Shown here one piece after another: positions 1,850 to 32,170 of a stretch of DNA of 64,000 bases. This stretch comes from a virus, in the UHGV virus genome UHGV-0311442; one strand, written 5' to 3'. Numbering within the stretch: position 1 is the stretch's first letter; every line of letters starts with the position of its first letter. The translations under genes and the position numbers were made by a program. Under the pieces are notes generated by a model. The model searched no databases and was not told the DNA's origin. It saw nothing but the letters and a program-made list of their open reading frames with translations.

Positions 1850-1887
1850 GACAGGCTGCCTGCGGGCAGTTGTGTGTCCGTAGGTAA

Positions 1888-1925
1888 CCCCTCCCTGTAA
1901 TGGGGAGGGGTATCCATTTTATTTA
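1888..1925 (+). terminator. Rho-independent terminator
   Basis: GC stem cccctccc / gggagggg with 7-nt loop followed by T-rich tract; lies between stop at 1849 and RBS aggag at 1931. Confidence 0.55.
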
Positions 1926-1943
1926 AAAGTAGGAGTCTTTACG

Positions 1944-7127: not shown

Positions 7128-7167
7128 CGCCACGAGACAAGGACGTCTCGGATTAAGGAGAGTGGCC

Positions 7168-8367
7168 ATGGCCTCCATTGTATATCAGTACCCTTTAGAT
7201 TTAACGGGAACCCTAACCTCTAACGCCGTGGAGCGTCAGGTTACGTTAGGTACAGGTAAAGTTAACCGTGCGTTTGCTTTTCCTGACGGACCGTTTTATG
7301 CTGATACGTTCCGCTTGCGGGTTGCCAATCGACCCGACGCGACGTATGAACGCGGAACGGACTATGAGTTGATTTTTGCACACCCGGGTTACGAGAAATT
7401 GACGAAGAACCGGGAAGTGGTAATGGCGGTTGTTGTAACGAACACCGCGATTCCGACCGATATCACGGTATCGGCGCAAGTAGTCGGTGGTCCGCAGTCT
7501 GCAAACGTGACTGCGATAGAACAGGCGATTGCCGAGTTGAATCTCGATAATCGAACTGTTGGCTTTAAAGACTTGCGAAATGTGCCGGACACGTTTCCTT
7601 CGGCACCAACGTATAAAGACGTCGGCGATATTTACGGCTTCGAATATATCATTACAGTGCTCGCTGGCATCAAAGATGCGATAACGGCGGGTGATGCTGT
7701 ACAGCTTGAGAACATCAAAGCGATTCTCGAAAGCCTGAAAAACGATTTCCTGGACGCGCTGAACGCGCACATTAACGCCACGGGTAATGTCCACCATCTG
7801 GATATTCATCAGGTTAACGGGTTAACAGAAACGGAGATCCGTGCACTTATCCGTGACGTACAATCTGCCATCGATGCAACCATTACTGATATTAATGCGT
7901 TGAAGAAAGCAGACGAAGCGTTAGGAAAACGTATTGATGCTGTTGTCAAATCTTTGGAAGCGTGGAACGACCAACTTAACATCGTTGCCCAAAACTACCA
8001 GAAGATGGCATTGGCATTGGCGAACCTAAATTCGCTAGTGTTACAGTTACAGAAAAATATCAACGATCTGAACACCAAACTCAACCAAGCGATTCAGCGC
8101 ATTGCTGCGTTAGAACAACGGGGTAATGAGTCCGATCAGAAAATTGATAATCTGCAACAAAACCTGGATGCGCTTAAACAACAGGTTGCGAATAACACGA
8201 ACGCAATCAGTCAGGCGAATCAGAACCTACAAAACCATATTGCGGCGGATAACCCGCACACAGGTTATCTCCACAAGAAATACGGCGGTGTGGTTCAGGC
8301 TCCAGTGCACGTTAACGCTAACTTGACGTCCCGTGATGACGTTCAGGCAGAAGCGGGTACGAAATAA
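7168..8367 (+). CDS. Coiled-coil fibre protein (fibritin / tail-fibre-like)
   Basis: RBS aaggagag then ATG at 7168 (ORF-track start 7060 lies inside the upstream gene); C-terminal half is heptad-rich, Q/N/L coiled coil. Confidence 0.75.
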   Translation: MASIVYQYPLDLTGTLTSNAVERQVTLGTGKVNRAFAFPDGPFYADTFRLRVANRPDATYERGTDYELIFAHPGYEKLTKNREVVMAVVVTNTAIPTDITVSAQVVGGPQSANVTAIEQAIAELNLDNRTVGFKDLRNVPDTFPSAPTYKDVGDIYGFEYIITVLAGIKDAITAGDAVQLENIKAILESLKNDFLDALNAHINATGNVHHLDIHQVNGLTETEIRALIRDVQSAIDATITDINALKKADEALGKRIDAVVKSLEAWNDQLNIVAQNYQKMALALANLNSLVLQLQKNINDLNTKLNQAIQRIAALEQRGNESDQKIDNLQQNLDALKQQVANNTNAISQANQNLQNHIAADNPHTGYLHKKYGGVVQAPVHVNANLTSRDDVQAEAGTK

Positions 8368-8376
8368 CTTTATTAC

Positions 8377-8422
8377 AGGAGGAACTATGCTTATGGGCGT
8401 AGTCCTCCATTCTTTTTTATTT
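8377..8422 (+). terminator. Rho-independent terminator separating the fibre genes from the Cys-rich peptide genes
   Basis: Stem ggaggaactatgc / gcgtagtcctcc followed by ttcttttttatttt. Confidence 0.6.
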
Positions 8423-8434
8423 TAAGGATACGTG

Positions 8435-8830
8435 ATGGCGATCAGTGTTAAAAATGTACGTGACCGAATCACCAACGTAGAGAACCAAATGGCAACTGGC
8501 CCACGTGTTGATCCGCAAGTTGCGTCGAAAGCACATAATGCCGCCGACACTTTTTCGGGTTGGACGCCAAGTCGGTTAGACTGCGGGGGAAGCTGTAGCT
8601 GGACGTGCTCAAACGGTTGTACGCATGGCTGTACGAGTTGTTCGGGCACCTGTACGTCGGTGTGTGTAGGTAGCTGCTCCTCTGCGTGCGGTAACCAGTG
8701 TACTGGATGTAGTTCAACGTGTTCTGGTGGCTGTTCAGGTTGCAGTGGGACCTGTGGAGGTGCTTGCTCGGGCCGTTGTTCTACGGGTTGTTCTGGTGCT
8801 TGCTCCGGTGGCTGTTCTGGCCCAACCTAA
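8435..8830 (+). CDS. Cys-rich repeat peptide 1 (~131 aa, ~26 Cys in CxxxC / CxxC repeats of C-S/T/G); candidate RiPP precursor or crosslinked structural protein
   Basis: RBS aagga 6 nt upstream of ATG; N-terminal ~50 aa leader-like and Cys-free, then the motif Y/L-D-C-G-G-S-C-S-W-T-C-S begins the Cys repeat core. Confidence 0.75.
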   Translation: MAISVKNVRDRITNVENQMATGPRVDPQVASKAHNAADTFSGWTPSRLDCGGSCSWTCSNGCTHGCTSCSGTCTSVCVGSCSSACGNQCTGCSSTCSGGCSGCSGTCGGACSGRCSTGCSGACSGGCSGPT

Positions 8831-8840
8831 GAGGTGAAAA

Positions 8841-9239
8841 ATGGCAATTGGATTACCTGCGCTACAAGCGCGGCTAAATAACATTGACAACACTGCATTG
8901 AAGAATACGGGTGCAGTACAAAACTATATTCGTGGGAAAGCGACGAACAACGCAGACCTATTCGGTGGGCAAGCTCGCAACCACTATGACTGCGGGGGAA
9001 GCTGTAGCTGGACCTGTTCGAGCTGTTCTGGTGGTTGTACAGGGAACGCATCAGGCGGCTGTGGCTCTTCCTGTTCTGCAAACTGTGTATCAGGTTGTAG
9101 CGCGGGCTGTAGTGGATGTTCGAATACCTGTTCTGGTGGCTGCTCAGGAAGCTGTACGGGGAGTTGTTCTAACTCGTGTGTAGGAAACTGTTCTGCAGGC
9201 TGCTCTGGTGCTTGCTCCGGTGGCTGTTCTGGGAGGTAA
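8841..9239 (+). CDS. Cys-rich repeat peptide 2 (132 aa), paralog of peptide 1
   Basis: RBS gaggtg; shares the YDCGGSCSWTCS motif and a 29-bp identical 3' DNA segment (GCSGACSGGCSG) with peptide 1. Confidence 0.75.
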   Translation: MAIGLPALQARLNNIDNTALKNTGAVQNYIRGKATNNADLFGGQARNHYDCGGSCSWTCSSCSGGCTGNASGGCGSSCSANCVSGCSAGCSGCSNTCSGGCSGSCTGSCSNSCVGNCSAGCSGACSGGCSGR

Positions 9240-9241
9240 TT

Positions 9242-9448
9242 GTGATTAGCCTTAAGAACCTTCGTGATCGGTTAGTAACAGCGGAAGGGTATATTACGAC
9301 CGCTAACGCAAACAACTATATTGCAAACCAGGGCACCGTGTCTTCAACCAATAACCTTGCCGGTTTACCTTTAAGCCATTATAACTGTAACGGCGGATGT
9401 AGCTGGTCGTGCAGTGGTAGCTGTAGTAAAGGTGCGGGGGGAAGGTAA
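9242..9448 (+). CDS. Cys-rich peptide 3 (68 aa, GTG start), short paralog with 4 Cys
   Basis: RBS gggagg 5 nt upstream of GTG 9242; N-terminus ISLKNLRDRL parallels peptide 1 (ISVKNVRDRI); core YNCNGGCSWSCSGSCS. Confidence 0.6.
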   Translation: MISLKNLRDRLVTAEGYITTANANNYIANQGTVSSTNNLAGLPLSHYNCNGGCSWSCSGSCSKGAGGR

Positions 9449-9597
9449 CTAAGCCCTCCAGTGGTAGTATGTCTATTACGCAATAACCGAGTTAATCGTA
9501 CGGGTTTACTACTGAGTTTCAAGTTACCGGTAGGCAATGGTGCGGTGGTTTCTATACCCTGAATGTCCGTTTGACCGTGAAATAATTGGAGCAATCA

Positions 9598-10485
9598 ATG
9601 AAGAATGATTTACATTTAGCGTACAAAACAATTTTCAATCATCCACTTCACATTTCTTCCCCTGATTCCGTACGTGCACACTTAGCAGATGAAGTTCGTC
9701 TGTTGACTCAGTTGCCGGGCGAATGGCCTAAAGTGCGCGGACGTTTCTTTACCGATCGTAAAAACTATCGTGTGGAAAATACGTTTAAGATTCGTGATCT
9801 GACGGCAGAAAGTGTAGTGGTCTTTACCGGTGACTCCGAGTTGCGTGGTAAACTGGTTGCGGGTAAATATTTCTTTAGTGACGGGATTTTGAATAACTCC
9901 GTAGATATGGAATTGTTCTTTACCCCATTTGAAGAAATGGGCGCAAAACCAGTTGCCCGTCGTTGGTGGTCGCCGGATTACTTAGGCTCGTTCCCGTATT
10001 TCTTTACCCTGGTAACACCAGAAACGAAGAACTATTTCGATACGGAATCGTATATCGAAATTGAAGGGTACGAAGCGTTAGGGATTAATTGCTTAGCGGA
10101 TTTAATGGCGTATAGCTATAAGTTCGTGTGGGATCGTGAACGTTCCGTGTGGGTTGCCCTGACGGATGAACACGAAATTACAAAACGCATCCGTAAGCCT
10201 TGGATGCAGCATTTGATTCAAACGCGTATTGGCGAGCATCCGTCAACAGAAGCGGATCTGGCAAAACTCGTTAGTTTCTTAATGACGAAAGTCACGTTAA
10301 CTGACGAAGAGAAAGCAGCAGTGTCGGCGGTGTTGGACCGTAACGTAACGTTAGCGGATTTAGAACGTTTAAATGTCCGTTATAAAGACCTTAATCGTAT
10401 TTTGGAAGCGTATAACTCTCCATTCTTGTTAACCCCTGGTGCTAACGTAGACGACGATCCTTTGTTCGCCATTGATTATATTTAA
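9598..10485 (+). CDS. Hypothetical protein inside the Cys-peptide / radical-SAM cluster (possible accessory or recognition factor)
   Basis: ORF with RBS ggag 6 nt upstream of ATG 9598 (ORF-track TTG at 9586 overlaps the RBS). Confidence 0.65.
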   Translation: MKNDLHLAYKTIFNHPLHISSPDSVRAHLADEVRLLTQLPGEWPKVRGRFFTDRKNYRVENTFKIRDLTAESVVVFTGDSELRGKLVAGKYFFSDGILNNSVDMELFFTPFEEMGAKPVARRWWSPDYLGSFPYFFTLVTPETKNYFDTESYIEIEGYEALGINCLADLMAYSYKFVWDRERSVWVALTDEHEITKRIRKPWMQHLIQTRIGEHPSTEADLAKLVSFLMTKVTLTDEEKAAVSAVLDRNVTLADLERLNVRYKDLNRILEAYNSPFLLTPGANVDDDPLFAIDYI

Positions 10486-10506
10486 AAACGACCGGAGTCA
10501 CCTGCA

Positions 10507-11430
10507 ATGACAACCAATGCAGAACCAAGGTTATCGAATCGTTTATACGATAAACCCACCGTATTGTCCGTAGTCGCTACGTCCAAGTGTAACCTGGATT
10601 GTAGCTTCTGCGGTGGAGCCTATTACATGAATCGTGAAGATTCTCCGCGAGAGTTTCAACGTGAGCGAATTTTGGAAGCGCTGGAAGCTAATCCAACCAT
10701 TACCGAAATTCAGTGGACGGGTGGTGAGCCATTACTGGCAACCCGTAAAATTGAGGCGTTTGTTGACGAATTAAAAGTGATTCGTCCAGAACTCAAACAC
10801 CAGTTGTATACCAATGGCTTAAAGATGCGTAAATCGCATCTCCCGTTGCTAAAACAGTTTGACAATGTCTACGTTAGCATCGATGGGTTTAAGTCGTCTG
10901 AGCGCCCGTTTATGCGCTTTATTGACGAAGGCTGTTACGAAGCACTGGAAACGATCTACGAGCTGGATAATGTCCAGACTTGGGGTGTCCTGACACGGGA
11001 CCGTTTAGGGGACAAACGCTGGCACGAAGATATTATTCAGCTGCACAGCGCGATTTACCATTACGGTTTCCGTGCAATGACGTTACTCTTAGATGCGAAA
11101 ATGCCAAAACCTTTATCGCCTGACCACGTCATGAACTTTATTTACGGCTACTATCAGGTTCAGGACAACATTGAACGTCTGAATGTAGTAAATGGACGTG
11201 AATGTGGCTTTACGGTAAGTAAAGTGTTTGAAGAAGGGTGTAACGTTTGCAGCGAAAGTCTTTGGATTAATGCAGACGGTGGTGAGCACCAACTCCAGAA
11301 TGCACCTAACGTTCTGGAATCGGGATGTAACCAACTGGCCTTCTCTATCGGTGTAGAGGCGTACGAATATATTCGTCGCGTAGTGATGGCAGGACGTAAT
11401 AGAGGGGCGGCAAATGAGCCAAGCAAATGA
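10507..11430 (+). CDS. Radical SAM enzyme (CxxxCxxC), candidate peptide-modifying maturase
   Basis: N-terminal CNLDCSFCGG cluster; GGEPLL SAM-binding motif; YTNG and SIDG motifs; four C-terminal Cys (possible twitch-like auxiliary cluster). Confidence 0.8.
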   Translation: MTTNAEPRLSNRLYDKPTVLSVVATSKCNLDCSFCGGAYYMNREDSPREFQRERILEALEANPTITEIQWTGGEPLLATRKIEAFVDELKVIRPELKHQLYTNGLKMRKSHLPLLKQFDNVYVSIDGFKSSERPFMRFIDEGCYEALETIYELDNVQTWGVLTRDRLGDKRWHEDIIQLHSAIYHYGFRAMTLLLDAKMPKPLSPDHVMNFIYGYYQVQDNIERLNVVNGRECGFTVSKVFEEGCNVCSESLWINADGGEHQLQNAPNVLESGCNQLAFSIGVEAYEYIRRVVMAGRNRGAANEPSK

Positions 11431-12736
11431 ATTCCCTAAGCAGTTAACGTATCAGATCGTAACCAACCTTTCGTGTAACCTGGACTGCGAATATTGTTAC
11501 GAACGTAAGTACCCGCGTAACAACAAAGCGGCCGACATTGTTGATTTCTTACACGCCTGTTTTGAACGTGATAAAAACGAACCGAATGTTGAAGTTATTA
11601 TCGACATTATCGGCGGTGAACCGTTCATGCAGCCTAAGTTGCTGCTGGCAGCGTTTGAAACCGCAGAGCAGTTGTGTAAAGAACACAACCGTCCGTTTAT
11701 GTTTAGTATCTCCACGAACGGGACCTTGTTAGATCGTCCGTTGAACCGTGAGATTGTAGAACGTTGGAAAGACAAACTTTCGGTTGGGGTTTCGATTGAT
11801 GGCTTGCCTGAGTCCCATGACCGTTATCGTATCTTCACAACAACGCGCCAGGGTTCTTACGAAGCCGCAGTACGTGGCTATAATTACTTAAAAGAGGTTG
11901 GCATTGCAGAACTCGGCGTAAAAGCGACCTTTACGTTAGAAACACTGCCGTTCTATGCTGCAGGGATGAAGTCATTAATTGACATTACTGGCGGTGGGAC
12001 AATTTCTGGGAACGTAACCTTCGAAGACGTTATGCCACGTAGCATGGCGACGTCAATCGCTTTACAGATGATGGATGTGATAGATTATTGGGTTGAGAAA
12101 GGATTACACACCAACCCACGTAATATCTTATCGCACATCATTCCAGAAGGGTTGGATTTCGATACGATTTGGGAACCGAACTGGCGTGACCAGTTACTGT
12201 ATAATGACACCGTACGGTTGAACCCAGAACGTTTACGTCCGTTCTGTGGGACGTTAACGCACATGACGTGCTTAGGATTTGACCGTAAGATCTTTGGCTG
12301 TAACCGCTTTATGTCAACGGTAACGTCGCGTTCTGCGGTGTTTGAGTTGGTAGGTCGGGAATTCGTCAGTCTGGACAACGGTAAATTGTTAGAAGAGATT
12401 CAAACGCAATATACCAACTACCCAGAGACCTGTTTAGGTTGTCCGATGAAACACGCTTGTGGTAGCTGTGCGGCGGCTTCTTACGAGAACGGGGAAGGAA
12501 CGTTAGAAGACCGTAAAGCGTATCACGCTGAACGTCGTCAGTGTGGCTGGACGACAGCGAAACTGATGGTGGCGGAATACTGGAAACAGAAGATGGGTAC
12601 GACGTCAGCAAAAGCGTTCCACGACACGAGCATGTGTTATTGCCCACGCTGTGTTCGTGAACGTGCCCAAAAGGAAAAATTATTAAGAGAAGCCAAAGAT
12701 GAAACCAATTCTGATCAACAATATTACGAAGCGTAG
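11414..12736 (+). CDS. Radical SAM enzyme with SPASM-like C-terminal domain, candidate peptide maturase
   Basis: CNLDCEYCY cluster; GGEPFM; STNGTLL; SIDGLPESHDRYR (SxDGxxxxHDxxR as in PqqE/anSME/AlbA-type enzymes); C-terminal CLGCPMKHACGSC plus further Cys; start overlaps upstream rSAM gene by 17 nt. Confidence 0.85.
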   Translation: MSQANEFPKQLTYQIVTNLSCNLDCEYCYERKYPRNNKAADIVDFLHACFERDKNEPNVEVIIDIIGGEPFMQPKLLLAAFETAEQLCKEHNRPFMFSISTNGTLLDRPLNREIVERWKDKLSVGVSIDGLPESHDRYRIFTTTRQGSYEAAVRGYNYLKEVGIAELGVKATFTLETLPFYAAGMKSLIDITGGGTISGNVTFEDVMPRSMATSIALQMMDVIDYWVEKGLHTNPRNILSHIIPEGLDFDTIWEPNWRDQLLYNDTVRLNPERLRPFCGTLTHMTCLGFDRKIFGCNRFMSTVTSRSAVFELVGREFVSLDNGKLLEEIQTQYTNYPETCLGCPMKHACGSCAAASYENGEGTLEDRKAYHAERRQCGWTTAKLMVAEYWKQKMGTTSAKAFHDTSMCYCPRCVRERAQKEKLLREAKDETNSDQQYYEA

Positions 12737-13271
12737 AATTCGACTTCTGGATAAGTTTCTGGAAAACAGTAAGCTATTCGGTTGTTATGTGGTGATTAAC
12801 GGTGAAGATTTTACCGATGACGTAAAACGCTTACTGATTCGTCACGGTGTGACTGTAATCATCCCAATGTACTGCACCGAACTTACTGACCTGTCGGTCG
12901 CGGAAATTGAAAAACGTAACCCAGGGTTTGAAGAACGGGTATTGGATTTCCCACGTCACAAAATTGCGTTTCTACGCCGCTCTTTAAGCGAACCCAGCGC
13001 AGAATCTATCACTGTGTTGGCATTGTCCTTCCCCGGCATTACTATCTTCGCAACACGTAACCCGAACTCACCGATTGATGGGTTTTACGATGAGCGAGAG
13101 AAATTTAATACCGTGATTTTTCCTGAGCTAACGCCAGAAGAATGCCAGGGTATCCGTATCGATTGGGAATCGGACTTCGACACAAGATTCCGTCATATCG
13201 ATTTTGAACTGTTAATCGAATTAGGGTTGATTAAAGGAGACGATGAATGTCTGCTACTGGTGAAGGCTTAA
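12699..13271 (+). CDS. Hypothetical protein (cluster-associated)
   Basis: ORF overlapping the 3' end of the rSAM gene; same operon. Confidence 0.55.
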   Translation: MKPILINNITKRRIRLLDKFLENSKLFGCYVVINGEDFTDDVKRLLIRHGVTVIIPMYCTELTDLSVAEIEKRNPGFEERVLDFPRHKIAFLRRSLSEPSAESITVLALSFPGITIFATRNPNSPIDGFYDEREKFNTVIFPELTPEECQGIRIDWESDFDTRFRHIDFELLIELGLIKGDDECLLLVKA

Positions 13272-13918
13272 CGAAAGAAGAAATCCGTCGCCGTTATTTT
13301 GCGCACGATTTACCGATTGACCGTCATGGTAACTACATGGAGAAAATCGGTAGTGAAGATCACGGCCGTACAGGGTTTTGTGCGTTACTGCACTATAAGT
13401 TGATTGATGGGATGTCTGATCGCGAAGCATTGGAACAAATGCGTAACTACGACATGTCTGAAATCGAAGCACGGTTTACGCTACAGAAAGCGAAAGACTT
13501 TGTTAACGACACGTTGGGGATTGACCTGGAAGAAATTCGTGCAGGTTTACGTTCCACGGTGCGGTACATCTTTACCGATGTTCAGAAAATTCTAAGCGCT
13601 CTGGAATTCCGTTATCAGGATGCGCGCTATGCTGAGATTCAGGTAGGTGATTTCACTTTCCAGGCAGATGAGAAGTCACAGGTAGCACTGAGTCGTTATA
13701 TCCAGTCAGAAACTGCGCCAGCGTATTGGTTAACGGCTAACAACACCCGTATCGAACCGTTTACGTTAGAACAGTGCAAGACGTTGCTGGCAGCAATCGT
13801 TGAGCGCGATCAAAGACTACACCACGCAATGTCTGAGCAGAAAAGAGAAGTCAGAGCTTGGGCTGAAGCACGTGATTACGATTCAATTAAAGCGTTTGCG
13901 TTAGAGCAAGGGCTGTAA
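13247..13918 (+). CDS. Hypothetical protein (cluster-associated)
   Basis: RBS aaggaga 6 nt upstream of ATG; last gene before the bidirectional terminator. Confidence 0.65.
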   Translation: MSATGEGLTKEEIRRRYFAHDLPIDRHGNYMEKIGSEDHGRTGFCALLHYKLIDGMSDREALEQMRNYDMSEIEARFTLQKAKDFVNDTLGIDLEEIRAGLRSTVRYIFTDVQKILSALEFRYQDARYAEIQVGDFTFQADEKSQVALSRYIQSETAPAYWLTANNTRIEPFTLEQCKTLLAAIVERDQRLHHAMSEQKREVRAWAEARDYDSIKAFALEQGL

Positions 13919-13939
13919 TCGACAGCGAAAAAAAATAGT

Positions 13940-13981
13940 ATACCTACCTCCTATTACGGGAGGTAGGTATTTTTATTTTTT
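13940..13981. terminator. Bidirectional rho-independent terminator between convergent genes
   Basis: Perfect 12-bp stem atacctacctcc / ggaggtaggtat flanked by an A-run upstream and a T-run downstream. Confidence 0.65.
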
Positions 13982-13982
13982 C

Positions 13983-14513
13983 TTAGGACGTAAAACCGTC
14001 CAGCTCACCGTTGGTGGTGGCCAGGTCAATACGATTATCAACAACTTTCGGCGTAATTACGAAAGTTGCCATTACACCTGGTTTATAACGGAGGTTCTTT
14101 TCAGTAACGGTGCACGTTACCGTACGCAGAGTGACGTTTTCATGTTCGTCTTTCTGGTCTTCGGTGTTGTACACAACGTCGCCTGGTGCGATAGCATCGT
14201 TCGGTTTAACTTTATTGATGTAATATTGTAACCAAGCGCGCAGTTCATTTTCTTGAACCCAGCGAGACAGATCGTCAGTTAGTTCAATACGGCCTACAAC
14301 ACCCGGTTCCAGACGATCGTAATGCAGTTCGATTGCACCTTTGAAATTCTCAGAACCTGGTAGTGCAGTCATGGTAACTTTGGTATTCTTACCTTCGCCT
14401 TCCAGCGCAGTAGGGAGACCAAAGGACACTTCTTTATCAGTTACCTGATGTGGTAGCTCAGTGTTAGCAGCATTATAAAGCGCGACCAACATCATCTGGT
14501 TAGTAGCGGCCAT
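13983..14513 (-). CDS. Paralog family A protein (176 aa), probable fibre-associated virion protein
   Basis: Tandem paralog of 14579..15109; both share architecture and C-terminal GELDGFT. Confidence 0.7.
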   Translation of the reverse strand: MAATNQMMLVALYNAANTELPHQVTDKEVSFGLPTALEGEGKNTKVTMTALPGSENFKGAIELHYDRLEPGVVGRIELTDDLSRWVQENELRAWLQYYINKVKPNDAIAPGDVVYNTEDQKDEHENVTLRTVTCTVTEKNLRYKPGVMATFVITPKVVDNRIDLATTNGELDGFTS

Positions 14514-14548
14514 TATCTTAAATCCTCAATAGTACGAGTTAAAGAAAT

Positions 14549-14574
14549 ATCGGGGAGGTTACCCCCCCCCCGAT
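14549..14574 (-). terminator. Hairpin terminator containing a C10/G10 homopolymer
   Basis: Stem atcgggg / ccccgat with a 10-nt C run (14562-14571); T-rich on minus strand after the stem. Confidence 0.45.
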
Positions 14575-14578
14575 TTAA

Positions 14579-15109
14579 TTATTCTTTAGGAGACGGTGCG
14601 GTGAAGCCATCCAGTTCACCTTCCAAACCGCTCAGTGCTACTTTCTCAGGAGCCGGAGGAGTAACTTTATACGTCGCGACAGTACCAGGCAGGAACTTCA
14701 AGTGGCCAGCCACAACCGTTACCACGTAAATGGTTTTGCCTTCTTCTTCACGAGAAATAGTTTGCAGGTCGTTTTCACCGAACTCGTCATCGGTGTACCC
14801 TTTCTCAGCCATGGCTGCGTTAACTTTCGCCAGGATCTTCGTTGGTGAATCGAAATCGGTAGTAGGTGCAGTTACTTCAACTTCACCAACGATGTCGCAG
14901 GAAAGACGAGTATAGTGGAATTCTTTCTCGCCTTTGAAGTTCTGGCTTTCTGCCTTGGCGGTCAGAGTAATTTTAGTGTTGCGGCCAGCTTCTCCGGTGA
15001 ACTCAGCGACAGCACTAAAATTAACATCATTTACAGTCAACTTAGAAGCAGTTTGGTTGTTTTTAGCAATTACAATCTCGATAAGCTGCTGTTGAAAAGT
15101 TTTAGCCAT
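14579..15109 (-). CDS. Paralog family A protein (176 aa)
   Basis: Paralog of 13983..14513. Confidence 0.7.
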   Translation of the reverse strand: MAKTFQQQLIEIVIAKNNQTASKLTVNDVNFSAVAEFTGEAGRNTKITLTAKAESQNFKGEKEFHYTRLSCDIVGEVEVTAPTTDFDSPTKILAKVNAAMAEKGYTDDEFGENDLQTISREEEGKTIYVVTVVAGHLKFLPGTVATYKVTPPAPEKVALSGLEGELDGFTAPSPKE

Positions 15110-15248
15110 TGTTTTACCTCGTAAGTAGTATGGGTGGTTTGCATAGTATTGTTCGGATTATAGAAGTGTTGTTAATAGTTATGACAGACAGCAGTAAGGG
15201 TTGTCTGTAAAATTATTATTTTTTAACTTTTTATAGAAGGGTGAAAAC

Positions 15249-15728
15249 ATGCTAAAACGTTTTCTACTTGTTGTAACTGCAGCACTTTCGTTGGCAAGCT
15301 GTGCCCTACAACCCACCGCTAACGGTCAATTCTCGACTGTACCCGTAGAGCCACACGACATGGTTATTTACACCTGTATGGGTGTTGAGCAAGATTTTGC
15401 AAATTACAAACCTGTCGTCAGTTCGACTAACCTAATGTTAGGTTCAGTAACTGTAGTCGATACTGGTGCTAACTGGGTAGCCACTTGGCCAAACGGTAAG
15501 ATTGAATCACCACAACTTTATAAAGATCTATTAGGTAAAGTTAATGGGAATATCGATCCTATCACGGGACAACGTTACTACCGTGTAAATGGACTACTTT
15601 CAAAAACGCCAACATTTGCGTATTCTACTTTAGAATATAAAACGGGCGATGGTAAAGGCATTACTTTCTTCCACTGTAAGGAAGGTGTAGCTCCTGACAG
15701 TGGAACAATGCTCCATCCTGCGGAATAA
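15249..15728 (+). CDS. Predicted lipoprotein (159 aa), moron-like gene on the opposite strand
   Basis: Signal peptide MLKRFLLVVTAALSLASC with lipobox L-A-S-C; RBS gaagggtg; own terminator downstream; only plus-strand gene within the minus-strand block. Confidence 0.7.
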   Translation: MLKRFLLVVTAALSLASCALQPTANGQFSTVPVEPHDMVIYTCMGVEQDFANYKPVVSSTNLMLGSVTVVDTGANWVATWPNGKIESPQLYKDLLGKVNGNIDPITGQRYYRVNGLLSKTPTFAYSTLEYKTGDGKGITFFHCKEGVAPDSGTMLHPAE

Positions 15729-15737
15729 TAAAAACTA

Positions 15738-15773
15738 CCCTACTCCCGATAAGGAGTAGGGTATATTGATTTT
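15738..15773 (+). terminator. Rho-independent terminator of the lipoprotein gene
   Basis: Stem ccctactcc / ggagtaggg followed by tatattgatttt. Confidence 0.6.
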
Positions 15774-15846
15774 AACCGTCAAATCGTGCGTAAAACGCAT
15801 TCTAAGCGTCTTTATACAAAATAAGGTATAAACGCCTTAGAAATAG

Positions 15847-16362
15847 TTAAATCTCGACTAAAGCGCTCCAATCGATTGGTTTTTGCTTAACCACTTTCAC
15901 AGTACCACGATTTGGTGACCAGAAAGTAATGTTAGGTTGATTACGAACGTCGATGTGTAACCAGCTGATGTCACATTCAATAAAGTGAATGAACGGAAAC
16001 TCATCAGGGTTAGCAGCGATATAGTCGTGAACCTGTTTTACGGTGCTATCCAACAACGTTGCATCAATTGCGTTACCGAATTTGTGTTGACTTCCTGAAT
16101 CGGCGTAAAGCTGTAACGCACGTTGTTTATAACTACCGCCCTTAGGCTTTTCTTGATTAATAAAGAAATCTAAAGTTCTTAGTCCGCGTTGTTGCGCAGC
16201 GGTTGAGTTAATCACCATTCTACCGAAACGGTTACGAATCTGTTGCAGTGAAATCATTAGCAACGGGTTCATAAACCGGATTGCAGAATCGCCGTATTTG
16301 GCAATATAAGACTGTGGTACTAACTCTCTGAGTTTAAAATTACTCGGATTTGGATGAAACAT
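15847..16362 (-). CDS. Peptidase M15-family cell-wall hydrolase (L-Ala-D-Glu / D-Ala-D-Ala peptidase-like)
   Basis: SQHKFGNAID (H-x3-G-x-A-x-D zinc-ligand motif) and downstream WLHIDV histidine, as in T5-type endolysins and VanY-like enzymes. Confidence 0.6.
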   Translation of the reverse strand: MFHPNPSNFKLRELVPQSYIAKYGDSAIRFMNPLLMISLQQIRNRFGRMVINSTAAQQRGLRTLDFFINQEKPKGGSYKQRALQLYADSGSQHKFGNAIDATLLDSTVKQVHDYIAANPDEFPFIHFIECDISWLHIDVRNQPNITFWSPNRGTVKVVKQKPIDWSALVEI

Positions 16363-17014
16363 CTTCCCTCCCAGACAGAAAAGCGCGTTTGATGTTCAGG
16401 TATTTGACATTAACGGGCTGATCTGTGGTGATATCAATACGTTCGTGGTCAGGGATTGCAGGTTCCTTAAACTCGCGAACGAATAAATAGTTTCGATTAT
16501 AATCTAACGTACGAAACGCGTTAGTGTTGTAGGATGGCTTTGCATTAGGATCTACGTAGGAATCCCAGCCGAATTCAACGACGGCCTTATAAAATGTTTG
16601 GCAGATATAAGGTGAGATTTCCAACGACTGCATAATACGCAGGAACGTTAAATCAGAGAACTCTTTATCGATAATACGCGAAACGTTACCACCCGGTGTC
16701 ATGGGATAGCTACGCTCCGTGTTACATTTTTGATAGAGTAGGTCGTGAATGCAGGCCGCAGGTGCCCACGGTCCGTCAGGATGGAAAATTCCCTGGAGGT
16801 GTTCAGGAATTGACGCTAAATCGGTAACGAACCCTTTCGGTGCTGTTAACCACAGTTGCGTGTCAGGCAATACACCCGTTAAATAAACCGCACGGTCTAA
16901 GTGTACGTGGTCGTGATAAATCTCACGTAACGTAAACGGATAATGGTAATCCTCCGTTAATACAAACCACTTATTGTCTAAACGTTTATATTGAAACTTC
17001 TCCATTACCCACAC
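16340..17014 (-). CDS. Hypothetical protein; TDLASIP...HDLLY motifs are reminiscent of DUF1353-type proteins
   Basis: ORF; probable ATG at 17005 with RBS ggaagg upstream. Confidence 0.6.
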   Translation of the reverse strand: MWVMEKFQYKRLDNKWFVLTEDYHYPFTLREIYHDHVHLDRAVYLTGVLPDTQLWLTAPKGFVTDLASIPEHLQGIFHPDGPWAPAACIHDLLYQKCNTERSYPMTPGGNVSRIIDKEFSDLTFLRIMQSLEISPYICQTFYKAVVEFGWDSYVDPNAKPSYNTNAFRTLDYNRNYLFVREFKEPAIPDHERIDITTDQPVNVKYLNIKRAFLSGREDVSSKSE

Positions 17015-17020
17015 CTTCCC

Positions 17021-17125
17021 TTATAGAAACCAGAAAAATTCGCATCCACGCTTTTCGTCTTTACGTTTTCGTCCAGACGTTAACGCTTTCCACAATAGTG
17101 CTAAGAGTTTAGCAAACCAGTTCAT
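17021..17125 (-). CDS. Small ORF (34 aa, MNWFAKLLALLWKALTSGRKRKDEKRGCEFFWFL), possible lysis-associated membrane peptide
   Basis: ATG overlaps the endolysin stop codon (ATGA coupling); amphipathic/hydrophobic N-terminus and basic C-terminus; below the 60-aa ORF-track cutoff. Confidence 0.3.
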   Translation of the reverse strand: MNWFAKLLALLWKALTSGRKRKDEKRGCEFFWFL

Positions 17126-17712
17126 TTTACTAACCCCGCCTTCACTACATAATCCGGCATTTCCCTGAACACACGTGCGTACCAGCCGTAAGCGAATTTT
17201 TCATTCTTCTTACGCTTTTCGGAGATTTCTGTGTAGTAGGTTACCTGGTGTGAGATTAACGCAAAGATTAAGATGCCTAACCCCTCGTCTTTACGGTAAT
17301 TCAGATAAGCATTCAGGGCACCTAGCGTTTTAGGTCCCATACCGCCGTCGGTGTCAATATCTGCGTAAAGTTTCCCTTCGTTATTTAAAACGTTCAGAAT
17401 ACGTTGTAACGATTTCACACAGTTAACGCGGCCAGAGTTAATAGCAAAATCAAACATCCGGTCTGCGAGTAAGGGTGAAATAGCTAAAATCTCATCGAGT
17501 TTAAGTTTCTTCCACCAACCGCGATCGTAAATATCAAACGCCTGCGCACGGGTCAGATCCTTCATTTTTCCTTTATACCCGTATTCGCGTGCAGTTGTTA
17601 GTGTTACACCGTGACAGGTTTCCCCACCTTTATCGTCAGGGTCGTTTACGTACCCGCCTTCTAAATCTGTTTTCGAAGCAATAATACCTTCTTTAGTCCA
17701 ACGTTCGGCCAT
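17122..17712 (-). CDS. Endolysin: GH108-family muramidase with C-terminal peptidoglycan-binding domain
   Basis: N-terminal EGGYVNDPDDKGGETCHGVT signature of glycoside hydrolase family 108; C-terminal region typical of the PG_binding_3-type domain. Confidence 0.8.
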   Translation of the reverse strand: MAERWTKEGIIASKTDLEGGYVNDPDDKGGETCHGVTLTTAREYGYKGKMKDLTRAQAFDIYDRGWWKKLKLDEILAISPLLADRMFDFAINSGRVNCVKSLQRILNVLNNEGKLYADIDTDGGMGPKTLGALNAYLNYRKDEGLGILIFALISHQVTYYTEISEKRKKNEKFAYGWYARVFREMPDYVVKAGLVK

Positions 17713-17773
17713 TTTGTTTAACTCCTCTTTTACACAAAAAAAGAAAAGAGGGTGGGATTACCCCACCCTGTCG

Positions 17774-19278: not shown

Positions 19279-19710
19279 TTAGCGAACGTTATGTGCTAAG
19301 TACATCAGAGAACGAGTGTCGGTGTCACGATAAGTTTGTGACATCTGGCTCAGTAACTTGTTGGCGGTAGGATCGCTATAAAGACGTTTTAACCATTCGT
19401 CAACCATTTCTGGTACAGTGTCGACCAGCAGTGGATAGTTAAGATTTTCCAGTGTGTATTCAACGAATTCGTGCATCAGATTCTGGTCACGATGCATGGT
19501 GTCACCTAACTCACCTGCGGGATACTCTTCACGAGGACGTTTACCCCAGCTGCAAATCTCCATATAGGCCGTGTTTACAATCTCTTTGTATTCCTCTAAC
19601 TTAAGTAAATCGAAGCCAGCATTCGGGCGGCAGAAACCTACTAAAACGCTCAGAGCAATAGGGTTGTTACGAACGTAGTTACGGATTTCATCATTTAATA
19701 CGAAAAACAT
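19279..19710 (-). CDS. Hypothetical protein (paralog of 20914..21342)
   Basis: Similar N-terminus and length to 20914..21342. Confidence 0.65.
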   Translation of the reverse strand: MFFVLNDEIRNYVRNNPIALSVLVGFCRPNAGFDLLKLEEYKEIVNTAYMEICSWGKRPREEYPAGELGDTMHRDQNLMHEFVEYTLENLNYPLLVDTVPEMVDEWLKRLYSDPTANKLLSQMSQTYRDTDTRSLMYLAHNVR

Positions 19711-19779
19711 TTTAATACTCCTTTAGGTAAATACAATAATGGAGGGGTGGTTTACCACCCCTTGTACGATTTTAGTTAA

Positions 19780-20892
19780 TTAACGAAATTTTTGACAAGC
19801 AGGGCAATCGCAGCCTATGCCAGATGATATTTCTCTAAAGATCGCGTCGATCGAGTGCTCATTATTCTTAAGAAAACGAGCTCCCGCCAAGTCACGCAGA
19901 TGAGTTTTTAACTTTCCGATAATACCGGGTTCATAGTTGAGTAGAATGGTAAGTGTATTGTCTGTGTAAGTCCACTGACGGACTTTCTCAGGAAACCAAC
20001 GAGCGATATCACGCATAAACTTATCGGCATCTTCTTTCCCAATAGTAGTGATTGTCAGAAGACGTAGACGATTGTCAACAATCTCATTAATGAGGTTGCT
20101 AATTTCTTCGTCAAGAGCAGCGTCCCACCATTTCCATTTAATGATGAGTTTTTCGCCCTCGAGTTTAGTCTCTACTTTGGTAGGATAGAAAGCTGTCAAG
20201 GTATCATTAATCGCTTCGGCCTCTGGGCCAGTGTAAGTAAAGGAATACGGTTCTTCGAACCATTTAATAACGTCAGGATCATTATCAACAAGCACGGTTA
20301 GCGTGCCGTCGACATAATTAGACCCACGAATTTTCTCCTTGTATTCGTGAACAGCACTACGCATGAGTTCATCAGCGGTATCTTTTCCGATACCATGAAT
20401 CGAAATAAGTCGAACGGCATCGTTATCGATCAGCTCAGCGATAGAACTAATTTCTTCCATGAGATTACGATCGTCTTTCTTCAATCGAACGACGATCTTA
20501 TCGTTATCCGAATAAATGCCTAAATCGTCGGGATAGAGGGTCTCTAACGCTTCTTTAATTTCCTTAATCTTCTTACCTTCGTACCAGAGGACGTGTGGTT
20601 CGTCTTTCTGCTGTTCTTCTACTTTCGGTTGTTCAGTCTCGGTCGTTTCCACCCGAGTGTTCGTGGTACCTTCTGCTGGGTTGAGTAACTCACCGATTTC
20701 TTTCGCGATAGTGTCGCAAAGATAATCGTTGCAGTGAGTCCAGTAGAATACGATGCTTTCATCGTTGACCTGCTCTACACGGAAATGTACACCTTTATCC
20801 AGGAATATGCGATAAAGTTGATCAAGTAACTGTGCTTCAGGAACCGGACGGATTTCAGTTTTAACGAGCGGGGTAATTTCGATATTAAACAT
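19780..20892 (-). CDS. Hypothetical protein with internal tandem domain duplication
   Basis: Two ~110-aa repeats (..RLISIHGIGKDTADELMRSAVHEYKEKIR.. and ..RLLTITTIGKEDADKFMRDIARWFPEKVR..). Confidence 0.7.
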   Translation of the reverse strand: MFNIEITPLVKTEIRPVPEAQLLDQLYRIFLDKGVHFRVEQVNDESIVFYWTHCNDYLCDTIAKEIGELLNPAEGTTNTRVETTETEQPKVEEQQKDEPHVLWYEGKKIKEIKEALETLYPDDLGIYSDNDKIVVRLKKDDRNLMEEISSIAELIDNDAVRLISIHGIGKDTADELMRSAVHEYKEKIRGSNYVDGTLTVLVDNDPDVIKWFEEPYSFTYTGPEAEAINDTLTAFYPTKVETKLEGEKLIIKWKWWDAALDEEISNLINEIVDNRLRLLTITTIGKEDADKFMRDIARWFPEKVRQWTYTDNTLTILLNYEPGIIGKLKTHLRDLAGARFLKNNEHSIDAIFREISSGIGCDCPACQKFR

Positions 20893-20913
20893 GTCATTTT
20901 TCCTTTTGGTAAA

Positions 20914-21342
20914 TTAGCTGTAATTGTGCTTAAAGAACTCTAAAGCACGCTGGTCGTTTGTAATCGCCGTTGTGGACATTCGTTTTAACGCCTGGCGGCA
21001 GTAAGGGTCGTTCAGAATACGTTGCTGCCAAGCGTTGACTATTTCCGTCACTGTTTCCCCTTCTACAGCAGTGTTAAGTTTATCGAGGCAGTGCCGTCCT
21101 AACAGAAACGCAACTGCGTAATCGGTAAACATCTCGGTGCCGAAATCCCCGTCGGGATAATCGCAACGTTTACGTACCGACGTTGCGGTAATGGAGTTAT
21201 AAGCGGTTTTTATTATCTCGTGGAACTGTTCCACCGTTAAGATGTTAACGTCAGTACCTGAAAGCGTAAGCGATGCCAGTACAGGAATACTGGCTGGGTA
21301 CTGACGGATGTAATCACGCAAATCTGAATTGAGCGTTTTCAT
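20914..21342 (-). CDS. Hypothetical protein (paralog of 19279..19710)
   Basis: ORF. Confidence 0.65.
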   Translation of the reverse strand: MKTLNSDLRDYIRQYPASIPVLASLTLSGTDVNILTVEQFHEIIKTAYNSITATSVRKRCDYPDGDFGTEMFTDYAVAFLLGRHCLDKLNTAVEGETVTEIVNAWQQRILNDPYCRQALKRMSTTAITNDQRALEFFKHNYS

Positions 21343-22090
21343 TCATGAACCCTTTTGTTTTTATCCAATATAAGCAATTTGCACCAACCTGAACTGGCTC
21401 GATCCTATCAAGTTCTTCCATCAGAGCCAGATAAGTTTGCCAAACGGTTTGACGTTCGAAGAAAAATGATGTTGTGCCATTAGACCTAAGACATGCACGT
21501 ACTAAGTGCTCGGTTTGTGAAAACTGTATATTAACGTTGTTCAGGACACGTTGTATAGTATCAGAGTCGTAATGCGCGAAACGATCTTTGTGTACCAGAA
21601 CCATCTCTATAGGCGAGGAATCGTCATTGACTGAAAAAGGTTCGTCAATGCGAATAAGGTTATTCCGGTGAGGTACCCCATCGTAACCGAGCGTATAGAC
21701 ATCCATACCTTCCCCCGGGTTACAGTCGAAATACTCCAGAATTTTATCAGCGTTTTTCTCCGCCGAACGTTTAAAGTAAACAATATAAACGGTATGACTA
21801 ATCTTCTCAACTTCGTATACTTTTTCGGAGAACGATCTGAAAATTGCCATGACGTTTAATCTTCCTTTGTCTTTAGCAACGTAACTTGCAACTAAACACG
21901 TTGCTTCACCACGAAGAACATCGTCAATGAACTCTTTTGCTCGTTTTAATTCATCCTCGTTAAAACCACCGATAGTGAGCTCATTCCCATAAATCTGATA
22001 AGCAAGATGTGGAGTAACGTTTTTCAGGAAACTCGTAATGATGTGCGTGTATGCCCAAAGACTACTATTCTTAAACTCGATAGTTTTCAT
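21314..22090 (-). CDS. Hypothetical protein
   Basis: ORF in same-strand array. Confidence 0.6.
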   Translation of the reverse strand: MKTIEFKNSSLWAYTHIITSFLKNVTPHLAYQIYGNELTIGGFNEDELKRAKEFIDDVLRGEATCLVASYVAKDKGRLNVMAIFRSFSEKVYEVEKISHTVYIVYFKRSAEKNADKILEYFDCNPGEGMDVYTLGYDGVPHRNNLIRIDEPFSVNDDSSPIEMVLVHKDRFAHYDSDTIQRVLNNVNIQFSQTEHLVRACLRSNGTTSFFFERQTVWQTYLALMEELDRIEPVQVGANCLYWIKTKGFMNENAQFRFA

Positions 22091-28785: not shown

Positions 28786-28820
28786 TGTAACCTCCAATTT
28801 TTAAACCAATACTCTTCCGG

Positions 28821-31078: not shown

Positions 31079-32170
31079 TTATAACTTGTTCTCGATTATC
31101 TCCGCCAACTCCTTTATTGCCTCAATAAGTAGAGCTATTTGGGCAGAGTTAGAGACCGTTAAAACGTCCTCACCATTAGCGTCTTTATAAGTAGAAACTG
31201 CTTCAGGTAACACTTTTTGTAAGGTCTGTGCTACAACGCCAGCCTCACGATGAACATTAGTGGATTTAAAGTTCTCCTTTTTGTCGTATATTAAACCTGA
31301 CAATTCCTTTACCTTCTCCAATGCATTAGTTATTGGAGAGAAATTACTTTTCAGCCGGGCGTCAGATCGTATATAAACGTCGTTAAAGTTACCGTTCCCA
31401 CCACAAACCCAAGTACCGTCGTTTTGCAAATAAGCATTGGCATCGGTGCCATTATCAGTACGTGAGTTGTTTATCATGTAAAAGCCGAATTGATAGTTAC
31501 CTAAACCACCAACAAAAAATTTCCTATCAGCATGGTCTTGTCTTAACAATGCCTGAGCAGAACTGGTTCCTACCGGATTAAGACCAAAAATAACGTTATG
31601 GTCTCTCATGCTAATCCAAGAACCTGAGTTGCTGTTAATAGAATATCTATTTGCATAAACCCAAGTATTGGTTCTTATATCTCCGGTAACGTTGAGAGGT
31701 TTATTGCTTTGAACAGCCCCACTCGTAAAGCGTAAAACATGAGCATTATTGGCGTAAACATCTAGAACGCCATCCCCGTTCTGCTTAAAGCCGGTGTCAT
31801 TATCCCCTAAAACTATGGAGTTCCCACCTAAAGCATTGGCGGTTCCAATACCCAATGCTCCATTCAATTGACCGCCAGATAATGGCAACGCCCCAACGTC
31901 GGCAGCAGTTGGCTTGTTTCTCGTATTGTACACGCGACGCCAACCTGGTGAGTAAGTATCGCCGTTAAATACGTAGATAAACTCCGCATTAGTGAGTGCG
32001 CCGGAGACGCTCGTCGTTGTGGCGGTCGTTATACGGATCGTGTAGTTGTTTGTGCTATTGCCATTACTAATCACTTCTATAACGGCCCCAGCTAACGGAA
32101 TAGCCCCCACAACCCGTCTCGCTGTGTGGTATGTGCGCACTAGCGGCATAAGCCCATGCACAGCGAGCAA
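31079..32170 (-). CDS. Tail-fibre distal segment with C-terminal intramolecular-chaperone (peptidase S74-like) domain
   Basis: C-terminus SDARLKSNFSPITNALEKVKELSGLIYDKKE...VSNSAQIALLIEAIKELAEI matches the auto-cleaving chaperone domain of phage fibres and endosialidases; no RBS-supported start; overlaps the upstream fibre ORF by ~100 nt. Confidence 0.65.
   Translation of the reverse strand: MLAVHGLMPLVRTYHTARRVVGAIPLAGAVIEVISNGNSTNNYTIRITTATTTSVSGALTNAEFIYVFNGDTYSPGWRRVYNTRNKPTAADVGALPLSGGQLNGALGIGTANALGGNSIVLGDNDTGFKQNGDGVLDVYANNAHVLRFTSGAVQSNKPLNVTGDIRTNTWVYANRYSINSNSGSWISMRDHNVIFGLNPVGTSSAQALLRQDHADRKFFVGGLGNYQFGFYMINNSRTDNGTDANAYLQNDGTWVCGGNGNFNDVYIRSDARLKSNFSPITNALEKVKELSGLIYDKKENFKSTNVHREAGVVAQTLQKVLPEAVSTYKDANGEDVLTVSNSAQIALLIEAIKELAEIIENKL

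Follow-up and report, generated by a model that had tools for sequence, protein, structure and literature searches.

We analyzed positions 15847-17712 of a 64,000-nucleotide stretch of the virus genome UHGV-0311442 (hereafter, the window), where an earlier note made from the sequence alone had pointed out two different peptidoglycan hydrolases lying close together. The results showed that this interval consists of four minus-strand open reading frames (ORFs), which are predicted to form one transcription unit between terminator-like hairpins. Two genes that the note had not mentioned, a DUF1353 gene and an ORF of 34 amino acids (aa), stand between the genes of the two hydrolases. On balance, we think that this operon is a multi-enzyme module for lysis of the host cell, that is, for the release of progeny, and not a pair of lysins placed among fibre genes. 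The features of the operon, in the order of its putative transcription, are as follows.

17749-17769: GC-rich hairpin (9 pairs, 6 of them GC) that leads into a T-run on the minus strand, tail CTTTTCTTTT; found in a scan for terminator-like elements, a consensus-level prediction
17122-17712, minus strand: putative GH108 N-acetylmuramidase with a C-terminal PG_binding_3 domain, 196 aa
17021-17125, minus strand: unannotated 34-aa ORF (105 nucleotides), predicted cationic amphipathic peptide MNWFAKLLALLWKALTSGRKRKDEKRGCEFFWFL
16340-17005, minus strand: DUF1353 protein, phospholipase-A2-like, 221 aa from the ATG at 17005 (the ORF listing extends to a GTG at 17014)
15847-16362, minus strand: putative stand-alone M15/LAS-fold zinc peptidase of the MepK/M15A-like type, 171 aa
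15736-15763: terminator-like hairpin, bidirectional, lying between the M15 gene (3' end) and a convergent lipoprotein gene; 12 pairs (6 of them GC) on the minus strand and 11 on the plus strand; also a consensus-level prediction

The hairpin at 17749-17769 lies 36 nucleotides upstream of the GH108 start. It is likely to be both the terminator of the upstream paralog genes and the 5' boundary of the operon, and the hairpin at 15736-15763 is likely to be the 3' boundary. The stop codon of the GH108 gene overlaps the start codon of the 34-aa ORF (ATGA), the DUF1353 and M15 genes overlap by 23 nucleotides, and each start codon in the operon is preceded by a Shine-Dalgarno-like sequence, which contains AGAGGAG in the case of the GH108 ATG. 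When the operon was compared with those of close relatives, the differences in all of its genes were found mostly at third codon positions. Judged from this pattern of substitution, all four ORFs are under strong purifying selection.

The phage of the window is an SPN3US-like (phiKZ-type) jumbo phage. At the DNA level, the best match of the 5.3-kb locus to any isolate covered about 450 nucleotides with 76% identity (megablast), meaning that the phage collection holds no close isolate. Uncultivated contigs of about 150-225 kb in IMG/VR encode a DUF1353 protein that is 94-98% identical to that of the window. At the protein level, the region 7060-17712 of the window is colinear with SPN3US gp167-gp156 in inverted orientation, with identities of 36%-83%. 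The GH108, DUF1353 and M15-like proteins are homologues of gp156 (61% identity), gp157 (59%) and gp158 (78%), respectively, and in both phages these genes have the same order and the same orientation relative to their radical-SAM, DUF4376 and gp160 neighbors. Because the arrangement is syntenic with gp156-gp158 of SPN3US and the divergence in all of the genes is dominated by third positions, it is not a product of chance. The two loci are not the same in every respect. SPN3US has one gp160 copy while the window has two, it has seventeen family-B paralogs upstream while the window has two, and it possesses a second small ORF with a transmembrane domain (TMD) that the window does not; the similarity of the DNA is only distant.

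The first protein of the operon was identified as a GH108 muramidase with a peptidoglycan-binding domain, as the earlier note had stated. Pfam gave Glyco_hydro_108 (PF05838) with 84.3 bits (cut-off 21.2, E 8.7e-24) and PG_binding_3 (PF09374) with 60.6 bits (cut-off 24.6, E 1.7e-16), which is the canonical architecture of an endolysin of the N4 gp61/TtsA type, and the protein also matched PHROG 315, 'endolysin', with E 2e-43. Among PDB sequences it matched 6V40 and 6V3Z (named Sen1395) with E 8e-45 and 4e-43, and its EGGYV motif was aligned to EGGYV of these proteins. We take 6V40 and 6V3Z to be the TtsA/Sen1395 structures of Geiger et al. 2020. The protein is about 50% identical to the TtsA-type enzymes of solved structure. 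Its putative catalytic residue is Glu18, in the motif L17-E18-G19-G20-Y21, and neither a signal peptide nor a transmembrane segment was found in it. Its nearest relatives outside the jumbo phages are encoded by unrelated Cronobacter and Pectobacterium phages of about 150 kb, with 66% identity.

The last protein of the operon required a different approach. The 171-aa protein itself had no Pfam or NCBIfam match, no curated M15 model at E<=1, and only a chance match among PDB sequences. Because no direct sequence match exists, its membership in M15 is argued from its fold, its motifs and the other members of its family. The AlphaFold2 model, built on a 24-sequence alignment, had a pLDDT of 94.3 and showed the DD-peptidase (LAS) fold. 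Two motifs were found in the protein, S91-x-H93-x2-G96-x-A98-x-D100 (SQHKFGNAID) and W134-x-H136-x-D138 (WLHID). These correspond to SYHTKGQAMD and FVHID of E. coli MepK, an M15A L,D-endopeptidase, and MepK-type M15A enzymes as a group are L,D-endopeptidases. The hhalign comparison with the single MepK sequence (E 0.003, 10% probability) was used solely to show this correspondence of motifs. A VanX profile match also aligned on the first motif (SxHxxGxAxD).

The earlier note had offered the lack of zinc ligands as a reason to give up the M15 assignment, and the ligands H93, D100 and H136 proved to be present and invariant in the 24 closer homologues. The full set of invariant positions in this close family is R62, H93, G96, A98, D100, E129, W134, H136, D138, V139 and R140. 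Among 74 representatives selected at <=50% identity, H93 and H136 were still invariant, and S91, G96, A98, D100, E129, W134, D138 and R140 were conserved in at least 90%. Peptidase_M15_3 (PF08291) was matched by 16 of the 24 close and 31 of the 74 distant members, and further members matched M15_4 or M15_2 (PF13539 or PF05951). An exhaustive profile search extended the family to about 1,950 clusters, and 149 of the top 150 representatives were stand-alone proteins of 115-204 aa. The protein of the window, too, is not fused to any structural protein. Between the M15 gene of the window and that of its close relative L009, there were 27 nucleotide differences and 0 amino-acid changes. The fold, the conserved ligands and the family matches to PF08291 together make it credible that the modeled protein is an M15/LAS-fold zinc peptidase that keeps its zinc and catalytic motif residues, at the place where the earlier note had put an M15 metallopeptidase. 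From their sequences and models, the GH108 and M15 proteins are probably peptidoglycan hydrolases with different bond specificities, one a glycosidase and the other a metallopeptidase.

Known M15/LAS peptidases, that is, the Streptomyces albus DD-peptidase (1LBU), E. coli MepK, VldE and the endolysins Ply500, LysB4 and T5 Lys, are too low in sequence similarity to the window protein for a direct Pfam or PDB match. They also differ in architecture, because the window protein has a helical N-terminal region of about 60 residues and the jumbo-phage members have a C-terminal beta extension of about 25 residues. In Vibrio phage J2, a VP2-like podophage of 39.5 kb, the M15-like homologue gp12 (8540-9013) is the only annotated lysin. 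The M15-like gene of J2 and other VP2-like podophages lies between the genes for the major head (capsid) protein and the tail tubular protein, which is an unusual place for an endolysin.

The third gene of the operon encodes a DUF1353 protein (PF07087, 54.9 bits, cut-off 22.5, E 6.9e-15 in Pfam). PHROG 1158 and the RefSeq and other public records label this protein 'tail assembly chaperone'. The results of the structural comparison did not agree with this label. The predicted model best matched a fungal phospholipase A2 (PLA2) and contained a helical core like that of the group XIII/XIV secreted PLA2s; a C-terminal extension of about 70 residues is also present in the window protein. His-87, Asp-88 and Asp-118 were invariant across 36 DUF1353 homologues, and a profile of the homologues found nothing among PDB sequences. 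The sole functional study of the family concerns TtaP, a DUF1353 protein encoded in the typhoid toxin islet, which was shown to be a PLA2 with catalytic H70/D71/D85 and to be distant kin of the group XIV secreted PLA2s (PMC11525133). H87-D88/D118 of the window protein appear to correspond to H70, D71 and D85 of TtaP. The model thus suggests that the protein has been mislabelled as a tail chaperone and is probably phospholipase-like instead.

According to the public annotation, the DUF1353 protein would be a tail (fibre) assembly chaperone, the M15-like protein would be a non-catalytic or structural relic, and the GH108 protein would be the sole enzyme of consequence. In addition to the PHROG 1158 and RefSeq label, tail-fibre genes are neighbors of DUF1353 at some loci, and the lack of a direct Pfam match of the window M15-like protein would fit a relic. 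CDART also listed fusions of DUF1353 with Caudo_TAP, which may be the origin of the words 'tail assembly'; the other fusion partners were NlpC/P60, a COG5526 lysozyme-family domain, OmpA_C, MliC and DUF4376. However, we found no experimental basis for the chaperone label, and the founding member of DUF1353 is an enzyme whose fold and invariant H-D/D residues the phage protein appears to share. The zinc and catalytic motif is kept across the whole M15-like family, and the divergence of the M15 gene is almost wholly synonymous. We therefore regard the annotated roles as very improbable.

The second gene, the 34-aa ORF, is predicted to encode a peptide with a net charge of +5 and an N-terminal amphipathic helix of about 16 residues (hydrophobic moment 0.47). 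Compared with the ORFs of close relatives, it showed 11-12 differences in 105 nucleotides and one amino-acid change, and judged from these substitutions it is a real gene under purifying selection. In SPN3US, a related small ORF (NWFA...RRKR) overlaps the end of gp156 and is unannotated in RefSeq. Other relatives have a different ORF of 30-52 aa with a single helix at the same position.

The region between the GH108 and DUF1353 genes contained one or two ORFs of 30-52 aa with a single hydrophobic helix in every relative examined, and these belonged to at least three unrelated sequence types. They were found at 5052-5159 and 5250-5342 of the SPN3US locus and at about 5850-6010 in further relatives (L015-L020). 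In SPLA3, only the second is annotated.

We then compared the gene content of the operon among relatives. The order GH108-DUF1353-M15 was found in window-type and SPN3US-type phages, GH108-DUF1353 without M15 in Erwinia Caitlin/Huxley-type phages, and DUF1353-M15 without GH108 in CR5/Derbicus/Phobos-type phages. DUF1353 itself is widespread and is conserved across many phiKZ-like lineages. That is, DUF1353 seems to be a constant core, to which the two wall hydrolases are added singly or together, one being able to take the place of the other. We considered whether the M15 protein is the sole endolysin of the CR5-type phages and rejected this idea; CR5 also has an annotated 285-aa transglycosylase.

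A similar architecture was found in small phages that are unrelated to the jumbo phages. In Fusobacterium phage phiRTG5, the genes for an M15_4 endolysin, a TMD protein of 97 aa, DUF1353 and a holin that Pfam confirmed as Phage_holin_4_1 stand in a row, and in Caulobacter phage DMCA an M15_4 peptidase, an 88-aa Pro-rich lipoprotein (o-spanin-like) and DUF1353 are encoded in a row. Both cassettes are like the operon in combining a peptidoglycan hydrolase, a small membrane protein and DUF1353. They are unlike it in that the hydrolase is Peptidase_M15_4 only, GH108 is absent, and the DUF1353 protein has 147-149 aa. When the two neighbors on each side of DUF1353 were listed at 23 non-redundant small viral loci, three holins, two amidases, a lysozyme and an SLT were found among them, together with HNH, small-terminase and tail-fibre genes, so this census is suggestive and not decisive.

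From the above results, we propose the following mechanism for lysis. The operon would be expressed as one late transcription unit, and its products would have their targets in different parts of the Gram-negative envelope. The enzyme with the GH108 and PG_binding_3 domains would bind the sacculus and cleave the glycan bond between N-acetylmuramic acid and N-acetylglucosamine (MurNAc-GlcNAc), and the M15/LAS zinc peptidase would cut peptide stems or cross-links. The DUF1353 protein, as a TtaP-like PLA2, would convert membrane phospholipid to lysophospholipid and weaken membranes, most plausibly the outer membrane, and the 34-aa cationic amphipathic peptide may assist at the membrane. Because none of the products has a signal peptide, they would need a membrane lesion, for example one made by a holin encoded elsewhere, to reach their substrates. 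TtsA is known to require perturbation of the outer membrane to release the toxin (PMC11525133), and the PLA2-like enzyme, perhaps with the cationic peptide, may supply the perturbation that TtsA-type muramidases need.

Several points weigh against assigning the operon to host lysis. No recognisable holin or spanin was found within the operon, and holin families were also absent from the flanking ORFs that were scanned. The sole holin candidate, the 34-aa peptide, has no full transmembrane segment. The promoter and terminator calls in the operon are consensus matches only, and the operon sits among virion genes. In the DUF1353 family, enzyme activity has been demonstrated for TtaP alone and not for phage members, and deletion of ttaP in S. 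Typhi gave no envelope phenotype. In the wider sample, the enrichment of lysis genes beside DUF1353 was modest. SPN3US and CR5 carry a separate stand-alone SLT transglycosylase that is of the same type as phiKZ gp144, and the main endolysin of these relatives could be this enzyme. Moreover, two homologues of the operon proteins were detected in SPN3US particles. In wild-type virions purified on caesium chloride, gp157 (DUF1353) was found with 4 peptides, 9 spectra and 25% coverage under the label 'Head', and gp158 (M15) was found with 2-7 spectra in several particle preparations.

The particle data can be explained by a division of roles, in which GH108 serves lysis and the translationally coupled DUF1353 and M15 proteins enter the virion in a few copies. 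At infection, these two would open the peptidoglycan locally and remodel membrane lipids during ejection of the genome and proteins, possibly in connection with the membrane-bound early-infection vesicle of phiKZ-like phages. It agrees with this explanation that gp156 (GH108) never appeared in SPN3US virion protein lists, and that the 2016 study detected gp158 in tailed particles (2-3 spectra) and in neither tailless nor gp241-minus ones. The genes also lie between head-paralog and fibre-paralog genes, the M15-like gene of VP2-like podophages lies between capsid and tail-tube genes, and some proteins carry DUF1353 fused to Caudo_TAP or to DUF4376, a DUF4376 gene being present about 2 kb away in the window. 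However, the 2017 study counted 0 gp158 spectra in wild type and, in mutant particles, 4-7 (30-37% coverage), and its authors attributed gp158 to non-specific association; gp157 was missed in several mutants. Counts as low as these are at the noise floor, and contamination of particle preparations by abundant late proteins is common. The phiKZ-like phages already have an SLT domain in a giant tail protein, the M15-like proteins stand alone and are not fused to structural proteins, and in small phages DUF1353 is part of genuine lysis cassettes. The preprints on the Goslar virion structure and on the early phage infection (EPI) vesicle mention no phospholipase, peptidase or lysozyme, and nothing relevant to a virion or phospholipase role was found in the SPN3US proteomics papers of 2020 and 2023 or in a review of jumbo phages. 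Taken together, packaging of the two proteins for entry seems to us rather unlikely, although it is the main rival to the lysis module.

The earlier note had left a choice between an endolysin accompanied by a virion-associated entry lysin and a lysis pair of dual specificity. Of these, the lysis pair fits better with a single operon, a stand-alone M15 family, the lysin of J2 and the presence of DUF1353 in lysis cassettes, and the entry lysin is the less probable part of that choice, as gp158 was present in traces that were judged non-specific.

The SLT transglycosylase raises another explanation, namely that the real lysis cassette (phiKZ-type SLT, holin and spanins) lies elsewhere and that the operon is a horizontally shuffled auxiliary set which is dispensable for lysis. 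The following loci outside the window are candidates for such a phiKZ-type lysis cassette in SPN3US-like and CR5-like phages.

SPN3US 175058-175780: stand-alone SLT transglycosylase, 240 aa, followed by small ORFs
CR5_178, 14945-15799 of the CR5 stretch: stand-alone SLT transglycosylase, 285 aa, followed by small ORFs

A second SLT match was found in the SPN3US and CR5 records by tblastn, and this probably lies in the giant tail protein. The SPN3US-like phages thus have three or four wall-hydrolase domains, more than one of which is a candidate for 'the' endolysin. The proven lysis cassette of phiKZ (gp141/141.1/142/143/144) consists of a two-component spanin, a class III holin, a regulator and the SLT transglycosylase gp144 (PMC12894885). 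It resembles the window operon in belonging to the same broad phage group and in being a clustered multigene lysis system, whereas none of its SLT, holin, regulator and spanin components was recognised in the operon.

An auxiliary set of this kind might give broader activity on walls that are differently cross-linked or modified, such as the 3-3 cross-linked peptidoglycan of stationary phase. TtsA is reported to prefer L,D-cross-linked peptidoglycan, which would suit such a role, as would the L,D-endopeptidase activity of the MepK type. The hydrolase partners beside DUF1353 vary among relatives, and the 66%-identical GH108 of the unrelated Cronobacter and Pectobacterium phages suggests exchange. 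On the other hand, the strong purifying selection on all four ORFs and the conservation of DUF1353 across many phiKZ-like lineages argue against a dispensable set, and the role of the SLT gene in SPN3US-like phages is equally hypothetical. This explanation differs from the lysis-module reading in degree, that is, auxiliary versus essential, and not in mechanism. We consider it distinctly unlikely.

The operon has a parallel in the typhoid toxin islet, where GH108 (TtsA) and DUF1353 (TtaP) are also encoded together. The islet is unlike the operon in that it is bacterial, serves toxin export without lysis, and has neither an M15 peptidase nor a small peptide gene. In addition, TtaP has 125 aa, whereas the DUF1353 protein of the window has 221 aa with its C-terminal extension. 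A second parallel is found in mycobacteriophages, in which the peptidoglycan hydrolase LysA is paired with the lipid esterase LysB to breach the outer lipid layer at lysis. LysB is an alpha/beta-hydrolase, a cutinase-like mycolyl-arabinogalactan esterase and not a PLA2, and the host envelope differs too.

On the basis of these parallels, we put forward a broader proposal, which we hold only tentatively and think doubtful as a whole. The phage DUF1353 'tail assembly chaperones' might be PLA2 enzymes that form an unrecognised class of envelope-disruption protein and act as modular partners of GH108/M15 hydrolases and small membrane peptides. They might destroy membrane lipid at lysis, playing in Gram-negative hosts the part of spanins, disruptin or LysB, or might be carried in the capsid for entry in phiKZ-like phages. 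The TtsA-TtaP pair of the typhoid islet would then derive from the phage GH108-DUF1353 module as a domesticated copy. If so, a concrete hypothesis is obtained for TtaP, that is, perturbation of the outer membrane for muramidase-dependent release.

That a jumbo phage has two lysins is unsurprising in itself; additional wall hydrolases are known from such phages, and the same genes, uncharacterised, are already present in SPN3US and its relatives. What the present study adds is that the pair belongs to a four-gene operon whose constant member is PLA2-like and apparently mislabelled as a tail assembly chaperone, and that the combination of a wall hydrolase, a small membrane protein and DUF1353 recurs in unrelated phage lysis cassettes, with a parallel in the typhoid toxin islet. 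In the literature searched, we found no description of the operon in these terms (the PLA2-like core, the recurrence in lysis cassettes and the TtsA/TtaP parallel). If hydrolysis of lipid by the DUF1353 protein is true, it would be a new enzymatic route to disruption of the outer membrane in phage lysis, a widespread annotation would be corrected, and a testable explanation for TtaP would be provided. From a practical viewpoint, a set of three putative activities (glycosidase, peptidase and lipase) with a cationic peptide may be relevant to enzybiotics against Gram-negative bacteria.

As for the surroundings of the operon, the earlier note had described the flanking genes as fibre-associated paralogs, and this description did not hold. 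The flanking paralogs are DUF7941 proteins (Pfam) and belong to paralog family B of SPN3US. Proteomics of tailless SPN3US mutants found family B in tailless particles and placed it among the head proteins (PMC5105663, PMC5694885). Paralogs of the fibre/baseplate family (gp168-170 type) were found instead at 119-8367 of the window. The other features of the window are as follows.

10507-12736 and 12699-13918, plus strand: two radical-SAM proteins encoded side by side, homologous to SPN3US gp164 and gp163 (67% and 83% identity)
13983-14513 and 14579-15109, minus strand: tandem gp160 homologues of 176 aa each, DUF7941 proteins with 33% identity between the copies and 36% and 45% identity to gp160
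15249-15728, plus strand: predicted lipoprotein of 159 aa, MLKRFLLVVTAALSLASC, lipobox LASC, 49% identical to SPN3US gp159; PHROG 9559
19279-22090, minus strand: 142-aa and 143-aa paralogs (32% identical; the scanned one matches PHROG 8484) flanking a 370-aa protein with a weak helix-hairpin-helix match
26659-28797, minus strand: highly conserved, unannotated protein of 712 aa matching PHROG 143 (E 1.5e-246) and several sub-families
31079-35639, minus strand: two large genes with very strong tail-fibre PHROG matches, including the T4-type 'long tail fiber distal subunit'

The lipoprotein and M15 genes converge and share the bidirectional hairpin at 15736-15763. The product could be an outer-membrane lipoprotein that functions in lysis, superinfection exclusion or immunity to the lysins. 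The idea that it is an o-spanin was unsupported; it exceeds typical o-spanins in size, an i-spanin partner is lacking, and PHROG 9559 is a family of no known function.

A strong hairpin at 14574-14549 separates the two gp160-like copies. SPN3US gp160 belongs to the head ('head ejection?') and is very abundant, with an estimate of more than 300 copies per capsid (PMC5105663, PMC5694885). The radical-SAM pair is followed by a gp162 homologue and the DUF4376 protein (gp161 homologue), and in SPN3US, in CR5 and in an uncultivated contig of 222 kb this block keeps its place beside the DUF1353 gene.

On the other side of the operon, the synteny with SPN3US stops past the two DUF7941 paralogs, where the genes of 19279-22090 are found. 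The two fibre-like genes at 31079-35639 are unexpected in a phiKZ-like genome, which suggests that they are an acquired fibre module.

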